Made by a program: the position numbers and the translations under genes. Of a stretch of 64,000 nucleotides of DNA, positions 8,151 to 47,889 are shown one piece after another. The stretch covers positions 1,376,001 to 1,440,000 of the forward strand of contig CBDCMT010000001.1 in assembly GCA_965219095.1 (NCBI GenBank), read 5' to 3'. Source of the stretch: Bdellovibrionales bacterium. Lineage in GTDB: Bacteria > Bdellovibrionota > Bdellovibrionia > Bdellovibrionales > UBA1609. The notes below the pieces were generated by a model. It did no database searches, was not told the DNA's origin, and worked only from the letters and a program-made list of their open reading frames with translations. The stretch's first letter is position 1; each line of letters begins with the position of its first letter.

Positions 8151-9558
8151 TACCAATTACAGAAATTAATTCGACATTTTTATGTTCAAATTTAAAATTT
8201 TAAAATTGACTTAAGGAAAAGTTTCAATTAGGAGGCTTTAAAAAAGTTTTTTTTGAAGGGAGGTTGAGTTTTCATAAGATATGTTTATTTTATGTATATC
8301 TATTGTTGTGTGAATCGATTGATGGGTTAAAATAAGTGTAAAAAAGTGAGGTTAAGATGTAAAATGAAAAAAATCAGTTACGCAATTTAATTTATAGGTT
8401 CAAATTAATTTACAAGCTTGATTCATCTTGTTGTTTTGCCCAAGATCGAGTGCATAATTTTTTAATCCTGCCCTCCTGATCGCAAAAAGTATTCCAGGCC
8501 TCACAACAAGTATTCAGTATATGGTCATAGTTTTTAAAACATGCATTCGATAATTTGATCCTTCGTAATTGTTGCCAGACTTGTTCCATGGGATTTAATT
8601 CTGGACTATAAGGAGGTAAAGGCATCAGGGATAAATTCTTAGGAACTATCAAAGTCTCTGTGGTATGCCAACTGGCTCTGTCCATTAAAACAATTCCATG
8701 ATAGTTTTCTTGAATATTTTTAGATATCTCATCTAAGTGAATTTGCATCATCCCTGAATTACATTCCGGTAAAACCCAAGCACAGCCTTTATCTTTATCC
8801 GGACAAACTGCTCCAAAAATATAAGTAGATAAAAATTGTCTTTGTCTCACAACTCTAGGTCGTGTGCCTTTTCTTGCCCAAATCCTGCTTAAAGAACCTT
8901 GCTGGCCTATTCTGCATTCATCCTGCCACCAAATCTCTATTTTATTAGTCTGAATCTTTTCCTTTATTTTCTCCACCTCTTCTGGAAAATGTTCCTTAAA
9001 CTGTTCCATAGCTTCTTGTGAAGTTTTAGGATGAAGAGAACGACCACTGATCCATACAATATTAAGACGGTCTAAAAGAGCATAAACCCCAGAAAGAGAA
9101 TAGCAACAGTCAAATTCATTTGCTAAAAGTTCCTGTATTCCCTTTGCTCCTATGCTTCCTCCTTCTCTCTTGTCTTGAATTTCATCTAACTTGATTTTGA
9201 AGTTCTCTTCTTCTGTCACTGGTAAACGAGGCTTGCGCCCTCTGCCTTCTCGATCTATCAACCCCTCGTAATCAAAGTCTACAAAAAAAGACTGTAACCA
9301 GGATTTGATACTGTGACGGTGATAGAAAACTATACTTGCTGTTTCTTGAATCGATTTTCCTTCTTGCATATGCTGCAAAGCTTGGAGTTTTATCTTGATG
9401 TTGGCACTTCTTTCTACTTTGTAAGTAGCTAGAAAATCATACCCTTGAATTTGTGTAACTAAATCTTTTTTCGACACTCTAAAAATTTAACAGAGTTTGA
9501 TCAAAAAGCCAGGACGCTATGCGTTAAAAGAATGTCGAATTAATTTTTGGAAATGGTA
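8151..9558 (-). mobile_element. IS630-family element A with intact transposase (8410-9477)
   Basis: IRs TACCAATTACAGAAATTAATTCGACA / TGTCGAATTAATTTTTGGAAATGGTA, flanked by TTA; WWQDECRIG, MDRASWH, LPPYSPELNP. Confidence 0.92.
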
Positions 9559-38248: not shown

Positions 38249-38648
38249 AACAATATAGCCATGTTAAGCTTAGAGGAAAGGAATTTCTAGTGAGCTTACC
38301 TTTGTTCTGAACTTTATGAATAGACTTTTAGGACTTAAGTTTAGCTTATTATTGACAAAAACATATTGATTGCACTCTCTTGCTTAAGTTCAAGATTTAT
38401 TTTTTTCATTGATTCCATCAACTTGATCTTGATCTATAATTTTACGTGTCTTTGTTACACGCTGAGCCTATGAGCTTAACTAATACCAATTACAGAAATT
38501 AATTCGACATTTTCATGTATAAGTTTGGATTTTTACTTTTAGAAATTTATAACTTTTAAGTACGGGTAAAGAGTGTATCAAATTCATTGGAAAGATATGA
38601 TTCTCTAATGTTTATATACAATTTAGTTTACAGGCTCTTACAGGCTCG

Positions 38649-45270: not shown

Positions 45271-45796
45271 TTAGATTTTTCTGGATTGTCTCCAGATTTT
45301 AGACATACTAGTGTTCGTAAATTGCCAGTTTATTTTTATCCTTTTTTTATTTCTATTTTTTGCCCAAACTGTAATCTCTTTTTCCATCTTAGAGAATTTT
45401 CCTATACGACGATTTAAACACTGTTTTGAAAGGGCTGAAAACTCAATCTCTGCCATATTTAACCAACTCGCCTTCTTCGGTGTGTAAATCATCTTAAAGC
45501 AATTTGCTAAATCAAAAGCACTCTCTGCTTTCATATTTTCATAAAATGAAGAGGGGTTATGAGTGTTCAAATTATCTTGTATCAATGTGATCTTTTCACA
45601 ACCTTTATACTTTGCAGCCACCTTTTTCATAAACCTTGCATAATCTACTTTCGTCTTTCTACGACTCACCTCCACAATCCTCTTTCCTGTCAAAGGCTCA
45701 ACGGCCAATAAAGCTACACACACACCCTCTCTTTTATAATGATAATCCTCTCTCTTTTCTTTTCCAGGACTTACAGGAACCGGAATCAAAACATCA
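45271..45796 (-). mobile_element. IS630-family transposase fragment (third type)
   Basis: DYHYKREG, QDNLNTH, TPKKASWLNMAEIE. Confidence 0.8.
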
Positions 45797-45821
45797 TAGC
45801 AATTACAGAAATTAATTCGAC

Positions 45822-46531
45822 GGTAAATCAAAAAGACAGGTCACTGGTTTAAGCCATGATAGTGACCCTAAAGTACTTGCAGAAGGAGGTGAGCTTTTCG
45901 AGACAAATTCTAAACCCTTTAGCTGGCCTGTTTTTTAAGACAAATGCACTCTCAGTTATAGGAAATAACAATGAATTTAATGATTTTTATGAAGAATTGA
46001 TCAAAAAAAATTTACCACCACATACTGCTAGAAACGCTACCAACTAGAAGAATTGCAGCTTTAACTTTAGGTGTTTTCAAGTCTGGGAAAAAATATAAAC
46101 CTTATGGAGAACGTAAAAATGTAAATAATAATAAAACAACCTTATAAAATCATCTGTTTAAAGTTTCTTGCATAGTAAGTAACAATACAAATAATGACTT
46201 TATGAGATGAGGGTAGATAGCTTAATAAAAATGATATTTATAAAAAATTCATTTCGACGAATAGCACATCCTCTATTCCTGAAATTTACTATAATCTAAG
46301 GTTTTAAATCTTCGGAATAAATTCATGATTTAAAACTAAAAAAGGTTCAGATAGACGCATAATAGGAATATGTTTGTTTTACAATGTGTAAAGGAAGAGT
46401 CATTAAAAAATGGAAAGGAAATGCAGAAAGTTTTCTCTTAGGTGATTAGAATATTCGTGACCGTATGCAAAAAAAATTTTTTATATTTTTTGTAAATGGA
46501 GAAGTGTTTTTTCTTGACATACTTTTTGATA
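45822..46531 (+). mobile_element. Non-autonomous IS110-family element (left end, C-terminal transposase remnant, long 3' non-coding region)
   Basis: GAC at both junctions; empty site AATTCGACATTTTTATG seen at 8168 and 59377; remnant FNDFYEELIKKNLPPHTARNA..RIAALTLGVFKSGKKYKP; TTGACA near the right end. Confidence 0.75.
46205..46372 (+). ncRNA. Putative bridge/seek RNA with target- and donor-binding loops
   Basis: Stem GAGGGT/ATCCTC encloses ATAAAAATG and TTCGAC; stem TATTCCT/AGGAATA encloses ATTTAC and GATAGACG. Confidence 0.65.
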
Positions 46532-47838
46532 GACATTTTTATGTTCAAATTTAAAATTTTAAAATTGACTTAAGGAAAAGCTTCAGTTAAGAGATTTTAA
46601 AAAAACTTCTTTTGAGGGGAGGTTAAGTTTTCATAAGATAAGTTTATTTCAGGTATATCTATTTGTTGTGTAAATCGATTGATGGGTTAAAATAAGTGAA
46701 AAAGTGAGGGTAAAATTTAAAATGAAAAAATCAGTTACACAATTTAATTTATAGGTTCAAATTAATTTACAAACTTGATTCATCTTGTTGTTTTGCCCAA
46801 GATCGAGTGCATAATTTTTTTAATCCTGCCCTCCTGATCGCAAAAAGTATTCCAGGCCTCACAACAAGTATTCACTATATGGTCATAGTTTTTAAAACAT
46901 GCATTCGATAATTTGATCCTTCGTAATTGTTGCCAGACTTGTTCCATGGGATTTAATTCTGGACTATAAGGAGGTAAAGGCATCAGAGATAAATTCTTAG
47001 GAACTATCAAAGTCTCTGTGGTATGCCAACTGGCTCTGTCCATTAAAACAATTCCATGATAGTTTTCTTGAATATTTTTAGATATCTCATCTAAGTGAAT
47101 TTGCATCATCCCTGAATTACATTCCGGTAAAATCCAAGCACAGCCTTTATCTTTATCCGGACAAACTGCTCCAAAAATATAAGTGGATAAAAATTGTCTT
47201 TGCCTCACAACTCTAGGCCGTGTGCCTTTTCTTGCCCAAATCCTGCTCAAAGAACCTTGCTGAGCTTATTCTGCATTCATCCTGCCACCAAATCTCTATT
47301 TTATGAGTCTGAATCTTTTCTTTTATTTTCTCCACCTCTTCTGGAAAATGTTCCTTAAACTGTTCCATAGCTTCTTAATGAACTTTTAGGATGAAGAGAA
47401 CGACCACTGATCCATACAATATTAAGGCGGTCTAAAGAAACATAAACCCCAGAAAGAGAATAGCAACAGTTAAATTCATCTGCTAAAAGTTTCTGTATTC
47501 CCTTTGCTCCTATGCTTCCTCCCTCTCTTTTGTCTTGAATTTCATCTAACTTGATTTTGAACCTCTCTTCTTCTGTTACTGGCAAACGAGGCTTGCGTCC
47601 TCTGCCTTCTCGATCTATCAATCCCTCGTAATCAAAGTCTACAAAAAAAGACTGTAACCAGGATTTGATACTGTGACGGTGATACAAAACCATACCTGCT
47701 GTTTCTTGAATCGATTTTCCTTCTTGCATATGCTGCAAAGCCAATAATTTTGTCTTGATGTTGGCACTTCTTTCTACTTTGTAAGTAGCTAGAAAATTAT
47801 ACCCTTGAATCTGTGTAACTAAATCTTTTTTCGACGAC

Positions 47839-47889
47839 GGTAAATCAAAAAGACAGGTCACTGGTTTAAGCCATGATAGTGACCCTAAA
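47839..47889 (+). mobile_element. Second IS110 left end
   Basis: Identical to 45822-45872; joined after TTTTCGACGAC. Confidence 0.75.

Follow-up and report, generated by a model that had tools for sequence, protein, structure and literature searches.

The IS110 family of insertion sequences (ISs) is already known both for a mechanism in which a seek or bridge RNA selects the insertion site and for homing into other mobile elements. The element described here is a divergent and, in this genome, extinct member of that class; it forms an insert within the terminal repeat of an IS630-family element, in a 64,000-nucleotide stretch of a Bdellovibrionales bacterium genome (GCA_965219095.1; contig C2, positions 1376001-1440000; hereafter the window). 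The genome comprises 3.11 Mb in two contigs (C1 and C2) with 34% G+C, and its completeness by marker genes is 94%. As described in two reports (PMC11187229; PMC11208160), ISEc11, ISKpn4 and ISPa11 of the IS1111 group resemble this element in a DEDD recombinase (about 334 aa) whose gene is followed by a long non-coding region, inverted repeats in sub-terminal position, a structured RNA with the top-strand match 5′ of the bottom-strand match, a −35 sequence at the extreme right end (RE) facing the left end (LE), and orientation-specific insertion into a repeated sequence with a short core at both junctions. For the IS1111 group as a whole, the same sources give sub-terminal inverted repeats of 7-17 bp (PMC11208160), a guide RNA in the right end (PMC11187229; PMC11208160) and a top-strand match that lies 5′ of the bottom-strand match in the seekRNA (PMC11187229). 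The present element differs from those three in its distant recombinase, an RNA without an Rfam match, hosts among Bdellovibrionales and environmental metagenome-assembled genomes (MAGs), and the broken state of all copies in the genome.

IS621, whose bridge RNA is described in PMC11208160, likewise has a target loop and a donor loop, one arm per DNA strand and a short core common to both, but its RNA precedes the gene, within the left end, and has the arm order reversed, and its protein is only marginally similar to P0001, the best homologue of the present recombinase (structure 8wt6, E = 4.7e-4, confined to the C-terminal part). Homing into other mobile elements is represented by IS4321/IS5075, which insert into Tn21-family terminal repeats (cited in PMC11208160), and by ISEc21, which targets a conserved stretch inside IS3-family transposase genes (PMC11187229). 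These enter a terminal repeat or a transposase gene, and the present family resembles them in using both kinds of site (A and B below); it differs in its IS630-family host and in two guide variants, three bases apart, that serve two sites of one host. A natural three-base redirection is described for ISMch6 (PMC11187229). Partial IS110-family modules, with an RNA gene but no transposase gene, are also dispersed in the genome of Pseudomonas putida, where the partial ISPpu9/ssr9 modules form circles and Ssr9 is dispensable for transposition (PMC12288879); the partial copy in the window differs from them as a one-off deletion without sign of mobility. A literature search on IS110, IS630 and bridge RNA returned no paper that links, by its title or abstract, IS110-family guide RNAs to IS630 targets, and the supplementary tables of two 2024 papers, outside its coverage, may list relatives.

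The insert and its predicted guide RNA

The insert is very probably a dead, internally deleted IS110-family copy of IS1111 architecture that was placed at the IS630 repeat by a two-loop guide RNA. It interrupts the 23-bp terminal repeat of an IS630-family element as a 710/711-bp segment, with the left junction ...AATTAATTCGAC|GGTAAATC at 45821/45822 and the right junction ...TTTTTGATA|GACATTTTTATG at 46531/46532. Read with its full conserved terminus, the insert starts with GGTAAATC at 45822 and its last letters are ...TTTTTGATAG at 46532, followed by the right flank ACATTTTTATG... The uninterrupted site AATTCGACATTTTTATG is found in the window at 8168 and 59377 and, with one mismatch, at 38501 (three matches against 0.08 expected; three were reached in 0 of 100 shuffles), and genome-wide there are 47 empty sites TTCGACATTTTTAT, each with TA before it and preceded by variable DNA. 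An insertion into the IS630 terminal repeat with empty copies at 8168 and 59377 had been proposed in the preliminary description, and all of its coordinates check by sequence. The site at 38501-38517 (AATTCGACATTTTCATG) belongs to a third, empty repeat of IS630 type.

The host element is a 1.4-kb repeat (window 8153-9551) that begins at the empty site and carries an intact 355-aa gene (8410-9477, minus strand) with DDE_3 and HTH domains, as in the IS630 family. The insert entered at the inner edge of the terminal repeat (23 bp) downstream of the IS630 gene, and the interrupted copy in the window is itself broken, with frames at 46780-47250 and 47355-47861 on the minus strand. A GAC core had been suggested from the repetition of these letters at both junctions. 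It does not hold: the G of the right GAC is part of the RE terminus ...ATAG, which is conserved across the family, so that the shared core is at most AC. Two further target sites in this genome (C and D, Table 1) have xAAC on the left and GAC on the right, leaving AC or just C in common, and all four target classes read AC.

The 3′ region of the element is predicted to encode a two-loop seek/bridge RNA of about 170 nt (Table 1). The two hairpins first noticed in the window have been borne out as the target-binding loop (hairpin 1) and the donor-binding loop (hairpin 2) of a conserved structured RNA, by helix covariation and by guide/flank matches in relatives. The 3′ arm of the donor loop matches the RE-LE junction at 8/8 positions and the 5′ arm at 6 nt only, and covariation of this 5′ arm is thin (C/T versus G/A in three elements, by eye). 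After joining of RE to LE through AC, the −35 sequence TTGACA of RE would stand 17 nt before the TAAATC of LE. Just upstream of loop 1, CCTTATAAAATC (46141-46152) and GACTTTATGAGA (46196-46207) can pair, and this long-range pairing is also seen by eye in two related loci (L036 and L037); it may be an extra helix of a longer RNA form.

Relatives were retrieved through protein homologues as 78 loci, most of them from environmental MAGs, and the record titles name Bdellovibrionales, 'delta proteobacteria', Omnitrophota, Ignavibacteria and others as hosts. A DNA search of 40 related genomes with the 3′ region found no homologue, just four hits of 24-45 nt (E = 6e-5 to 8e-4). The related loci conserve the RE motif CTTGAC-N-ATAG and the LE motif G(G/A)TAAA(A)T, and upstream of RE they have in common a loop 1 of the layout AGGTGAGGGGAGAGAGCTCA-(arm)-GTAACA..hairpin..GATAGTTCA-(arm)-GATTAGCC-CCCCTC, followed by a loop 2 of the layout TATTCCTGGAATTTATCGTAGCCC..hairpin..GAGAGCTCAGATAG-NC-G..AAGGAATA. 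For an alignment of 27 distinct sequences including the window (A2), RNAalifold returned the loop-1 basal stem and the loop-2 inner stem, with compensatory changes in 19/21 pairs. Addition of the loop-2 basal stem gives a structure of 25 pairs, in which 95.1% of 669 cells are paired, against 41.5-55.4% when the partners are slid by 1-3 columns. Both sides change in 21 of these 25 pairs, and none of five measures was reached in any of 500 shuffles. The loop-2 basal stem is counted conservatively here, because the window and L036 are offset by two columns at that place in A2.

The arms follow the flanks of their own elements. With one representative per distinct arm sequence and ends set by regular expressions, the loop-1 5′ arm is the reverse complement of the right flank from the second base after ...ATAG, and the loop-1 3′ arm has the sequence of the left flank as far as the junction. 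At least six contiguous matches between the 5′ arm and its own right flank occur in 14/22 elements (median 8; window 9), compared with 1.5% of 460 non-cognate pairs; on the left side, at least five matches occur in 14/23 elements (median 6; window 6), compared with 1.0% of 504 non-cognate pairs. Permuted pairings of arms and flanks equalled the observed mean in 0/5000 trials on either side. The supposition that a true guide should covary with target and donor across homologues is thus upheld. In 14/18 rows the loop-2 dinucleotide after ATAG is the dinucleotide of the RE junction (AC, GC or TC); in most elements the left flank has only the final C in common with it, so the common core in the wider family may be a single base. 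An element of 52% identity (L086), present in ten copies in one MAG, follows the same guide logic in different letters: its stem is GAGCAGA/TCTGCTC, its loop-1 5′ arm AAGGCTCA faces the flank TGAGCCTT, and its loop-2 arms GGATAGGTGA and AAATTTAT face RE ..CCATAG|GT and LE ATAAAT. Nine of the copies are aligned at their boundaries, one locus with a shorter left flank being omitted.

Table 1. Features of the window element (window coordinates) and target site classes of the family in this genome
Feature	Position	Strand	Evidence or number of sites
Left half of target site A: the outermost 23 bp of the terminal inverted repeat of the IS630-family element (GCAATTACAGAAATTAATTCGAC); ends in core AC (45820-21)	45799..45821	+	47 empty sites
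Left end and leader (full-length positions 1-118); LE terminus GGTAAATC; sub-terminal inverted repeat ATCAAAAAG at 45827-35; −10-like TAAATC 45824-29	45822..45939	+	
Deletion joint with 8-nt microhomology TTTTTAAG; position 118 fused to 1055; 936 bp of leader and transposase gene gone	45932..45939	+	
C-terminal transposase remnant, aligned to P0001 residues ~268-334; holds one of four frameshifts	45940..46140	+	alignment; no Pfam match
Putative target-binding loop (hairpin 1): basal stem GAGGGT 46209-14 / ATCCTC 46268-73; 5′ arm AUAAAAAUG (DNA ATAAAAATG, 46225-33), complementary to top strand C-ATTTTTAT; 3′ arm UUCGAC (DNA TTCGAC, 46253-58), same sense as left half and core	46209..46273	+	
Putative donor-binding loop (hairpin 2): basal stem TATTCCT 46274-80 / AGGAATA 46364-70; inner stem 46301-10/46327-36; 5′ arm AUUUAC (DNA ATTTAC, 46284-89), complementary to LE GTAAAT; 3′ arm GAUAGACG (DNA GATAGACG, 46350-57) = RE end, core and first LE base	46274..46370	+	
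Remaining 3′ non-coding region and right end; −35 TTGACA 46514-19; sub-terminal repeat CTTTTTGAT 46522-30; terminus ATAG 46529-32	46371..46532	+	RE motif in most related loci
Core AC (46533-34), then the right half of site A (ATTTTTATGTT); the remainder of the interrupted IS630-family copy follows on the right	46533..46545	+	junction sequence, broken frames, DDE_3
Site A: TTCG-AC-ATTTTTAT; IS630-family terminal repeat			47 empty
Site B: TTTTCG-AC-ACTCTAAA; GTG start codon of the same IS630-family gene (window 9477)			26 empty
Site C: ATATA-AC-GTCTATTAC; end of another IS, 50 nt beyond the stop codon of its 361-aa gene (HTH + rve)			5 empty
Site D: GGTTA-AC-GCATTAAG; inside a ~200-bp repeat			4 empty

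The decayed parent element and its family

By its sequence features the element is assigned to the IS110 family with IS1111 architecture. Its sub-terminal inverted repeats (ATCAAAAAG and CTTTTTGAT) are 9/9 complementary and stand 5 nt inside LE and 2 nt inside RE; in the relatives both element ends read ATGAGAAAG, as read by eye from the listed ends. In the window element, as in the 26 relatives of alignment A2, the RNA region follows the gene and is 160-330 nt ahead of RE. The top-strand match precedes the bottom-strand match in the RNA, as in IS1111 seekRNAs. A protein search gave 1259 homologues (E ≤ 0.001; the best 120 listed); there are many intact ones, 330-340 aa long and with PF01548 as well as PF02371. 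P0001, the best of them, has 337 aa, is 84% identical over the N-terminal 140 aa, and scores 42.6 bits for PF01548 and 42.8 bits for PF02371 (cut-off 21.3).

The parent is an element of about 1.65 kb that comprises LE, a leader, a gene for a DEDD recombinase of about 334 aa and a 3′ non-coding region of about 440 nt ending in RE. A full-length parent was looked for in the genome and is represented by two copies with a broken gene, C2:601330-602980 (1651 bp) and C2:1748080-1749669 (1590 bp), the longest copies, which carry about 940 bp more of the recombinase gene than the window copy. In the genome search only the window copy spans all 710 bp, and other places match 1-118 or 111-710 separately. 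The window copy corresponds to positions 1-118 and 1055-1651 of C2:601330-602980, and these two matches overlap by the 8 nt TTTTTAAG, so that the loss is a microhomology deletion. The earlier reading of the locus as a C-terminal IS110-like remnant with a long 3′ non-coding region agrees with the alignment of the remnant to P0001 (Table 1), and the IS110 nature of the parent is confirmed by PF01548 in a full-length copy piece (31.4 bits, cut-off 29) and by the intact homologues with both domains. The window copy has lost the PF01548 part, and PF02371 on a piece from the same genome scores 20.4 bits, slightly below its cut-off.

A six-frame hidden Markov model search of the genome located PF01548 at 17 places and PF02371 at two; the longest open frames there are 149 aa and 68 aa, respectively. 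Both full-length copies have the same four frameshifts relative to P0001. In contigs of four public runs of one study, possibly the source sample, there was no indel at the four frameshift places, and the frameshifts therefore do not look like assembly errors; the same contigs, compared with a full-length copy, gave no RE-LE circle joint, contigs being blind to rare forms. The one 'go back' joint in these contigs (399 to 131, with 39 letters between) is a nested genomic copy. The window insert is an internally deleted, dead, single-copy relic among about 60 decayed fragments, and it is most probably immobile today, because no working recombinase gene was found in the genome.

Guides and target sites across the genome

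Nineteen copies in the genome span loop 1, and the minor-letter share is 16.0% in the 5′ arm, where 5/10 columns vary, and 6.6% in the 3′ arm; elsewhere in the 402 nt it is 0.4-2.8%. Among the 18 copies that show the 5′ arm, seven, including the window copy, carry guide 1 (ATAAAAATG), nine carry guide 2 (T(T/G)TAGAGTG) and two carry guide 3 (ATAATAGCG, with the 3′ arm GTTAAC); one more copy, without the 5′ arm, carries a fourth 3′ arm. As reverse complements, guide 1 corresponds to the right half of site A over 9 nt (CATTTTTAT) and guide 2 to that of site B over 8 nt (CACTCTAA). The two guides differ at three bases, which are exactly the A/B differences at the matching positions, and the left half matched by their common 3′ arm is identical in A and B. 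It is well supported by the comparative evidence that the IS630-family repeat is the target for which the insert's putative guide RNA is programmed.

Contrary to the first supposition, targeting is not confined to the IS630 repeat: the start codon of the IS630 gene, the end of an rve-type IS and the ~200-bp repeat also carry copies. The 45 junctions found with the LE word fall into A (25), B (4), C (4), D (2) and other places (10). Right junctions fall into B (20), A (8), C (6) and D (3), together 37 in A-D among 120 hits of the RE word; this search was loose (12 nt, one mismatch), and most hits outside A-D look like chance. At C2:1243183 there is a variant IS630-like repeat (ACAAAAATTAATTTCGAC|ATTTTTTTC), empty once and filled three times, with a 7-nt instead of a 6-nt match between its left half and the 3′ arm.

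Some copies have A on the left and B on the right, but no empty site in the genome joins A-left to B-right or B-left to A-right. In two of these copies, at C2:1748080-1749780 and C2:1168783-1171950, the element is framed on the left by TA and the 23-bp IS630 repeat and on the right by the last 77 nt of an IS630-family element, including its other repeat, and TA; the 1.3-kb IS630 body has therefore been replaced at these two copies. The A/B hybrids could have arisen by homologous recombination between two insertions in one IS630 copy, or by recombinase-mediated 'half-match' events of the kind described in bioRxiv 10.64898/2026.08.31.748434.

Several other loci carry structures of their own. A TA-flanked miniature element of about 70 bp (TATAGTGCTTCCGTTTAGG...GCGTATTCACTATA) lies in the loop-2 3′ arm of one copy and in the 5′ end of the recombinase gene of another (C2:705279-705439 and C2:522034-522400), and an insertion of about 1.7 kb breaks the 5′ side of loop 1 near element position 1345 at C1:170458-173195 and C1:307487-310840, with about 9 nt repeated at the break. 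A diverged second subfamily is seen at C1:10583-10894 (minus strand), with RE ..TTTTTCATAG and the loop-1 5′ arm AAGTAAATCA. This arm is the reverse complement of the right flank TGATTTAC at C2:625729, C2:2072007 and C2:705044, and at the last of these the flank is the inverted left end of another copy within an IS630 repeat, which may be an IS inside an IS inside an IS. Finally, C1:222677-225834 and C2:2391708-2394865 are 100% identical over a segment that extends beyond the element by at least 200 bp on its upstream and 1700 bp on its downstream side; the C2 segment is 2.4 kb from the contig end, and the identity may reflect a real duplication or an assembly overlap.

Proposed mechanism, alternatives and meaning

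By analogy with characterised seek/bridge RNAs, excision would yield a circle that joins RE to LE, and loop 2 would pair with both strands of this joint through GAUAGAC(G) and AUUUAC. Loop 1 would meet the target with AUAAAAAUG on the top strand of C-ATTTTTAT and with UUCGAC on the bottom strand of TTCGAC. The insertion boundaries, the complementarities, the conserved helices and the covariation in relatives are directly visible; for the production of the RNA, its binding by the recombinase and the chemistry, we infer a course in which the recombinase would exchange strands at the (A)C core, giving insertion in one orientation at the exact inner edge of the 23-bp IS630 terminal repeat. Later, the window copy lost its 936 bp through the microhomology deletion.

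Several observations weigh against this account. The minimum free energy fold gives both hairpins with an energy that is ordinary for AT-rich sequence (z = −0.65), and the evidence for structure is thus taken from covariation and not from energy. An Rfam scan of 45700-46700 with E up to 10 gave four chance-level hits (E = 1.6-6.5), far under the gathering score, and a promoter/terminator scan gave three promoter-like sites against 4.3 expected and no terminators, without excess over shuffles; the junction −10 sequence TAAATC matches TATAAT at only 3/6 positions, poor by eye, the relatives having TAAAAT. P0001 covers positions 1-342 of the 343 of NCBIfam NF033542, 'IS110 family RNA-guided transposase', at E = 4.5e-33, with 114.8 bits under the curated cut-off of 140, and is at most 27.4% identical to plasmid-borne IS110-family genes, themselves annotated only as 'IS110 family transposase'; the IS1111 placement is for this reason one of architecture only. 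Cognate scores are low in 8/22 right-side and 9/23 left-side pairs, which include mis-set ends (L041, L068, L102) as well as some true mismatches. Within the genome, guide 3 fits the left half of D but the right half of C only with a 1-nt bulge, and the exact site predicted for it is absent; no surviving guide cleanly matches C or D, and the family model R1 run on the genome found 21 modules, all of them known before, and among them no guide for these two sites. The guide matches the resident site in only two of five independent copies with concordant left and right flanks, namely the window copy (guide 1 in A) and C1:307487 (guide 2 in B), and guide 1 also occurs in D, as does guide 2 in A; C1:222877 and C2:2394665 make up a single count here because both lie within the identical duplicated segment. 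An intact transposase gene was not found by the six-frame search of this 94%-complete genome.

The uncoupling of guides from resident sites would be explained by past trans action of guide RNAs or by recombination between copies, and trans action of seek RNAs has been shown experimentally for this family (PMC11187229). Such action also bears on the suggestion of the preliminary description that the mini-element survives as a non-autonomous guide carrier, still mobilised or supplying guide RNA, with a recombinase provided in trans. LE, RE and both loops are kept intact in the window copy, which scores 86.5 bits against R1 (a model that includes it), the mixture of guides and sites among copies fits past trans action, and the four frameshifts common to both full-length copies look as if broken copies had multiplied. 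Even so, a living carrier is improbable: the 710-bp form is present once in the genome, its joint is that of a plain microhomology deletion, no open recombinase frame longer than 149 aa was found (a helper may be lost or unassembled), and the contigs of the four runs show neither an indel at the frameshift sites nor an RE-LE joint. The claim of survival is not supported, and a dead copy is the favoured reading.

A more sceptical alternative is that the complementarities are chance in AT-rich DNA and that the site is picked by protein alone. On one strand and per 400 nt, the genome-wide word frequencies are 0.015 for ATAAAAATG, 0.059 for TTCGAC, 0.004 for GATAGACG and 0.17 for ATTTAC, so common that it is weak alone; ATTTTTATG, the right half of target A, recurs without the TTCGAC left half within the recombinase remnant at 45984-45992, probably by coincidence, the DNA being AT-rich; and the fold energy is ordinary. 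We nevertheless regard this alternative as highly implausible in view of the cognate and non-cognate comparisons, with no permutation reaching the observed mean on either side, the three substitutions between guides 1 and 2, each of which follows an A/B site difference, the roughly tenfold concentration of polymorphism in the arms and the covariation of the helices. Insertion directed by a two-loop guide RNA, followed by internal deletion and death of the window copy, is the reading retained.

A broader and rather speculative extension, which we consider doubtful, is that the ~60 copies without a recombinase were once a common pool of diversified guides acting in trans, by which any copy might reach several sites in other mobile elements; such a pool, if real, would explain the uncoupled guides and resident sites. 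Double hits at A and B on one IS630-family element would then have deleted its whole transposase gene and left an IS1111-type copy between IS630 repeats and TA duplications, the arrangement present at C2:1748080 and C2:1168783; this would amount to RNA-guided elimination of one IS by another and possibly to a composite movable by the IS630 transposase.

The known mechanism is unchanged by these findings, and the points for specialists are the guide polymorphism within one genome and the IS630 replacement structures. IS-against-IS homing is seen at large scale: IS630 repeats account for 25 of the 45 LE-word junctions and the IS630 start codon for 20 right junctions, and after some of the hits the IS630 body was lost. 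The family also offers a natural, internally controlled case of retargeting, in which three point changes in one arm switch between two sites of the host IS and the other arm and the donor loop stay fixed. For a divergent, widespread branch of the IS110 family without Rfam coverage, a conserved RNA of about 170 nt is now defined (model R1, alignment A2), which could aid annotation and could yield new recombinase/RNA pairs.

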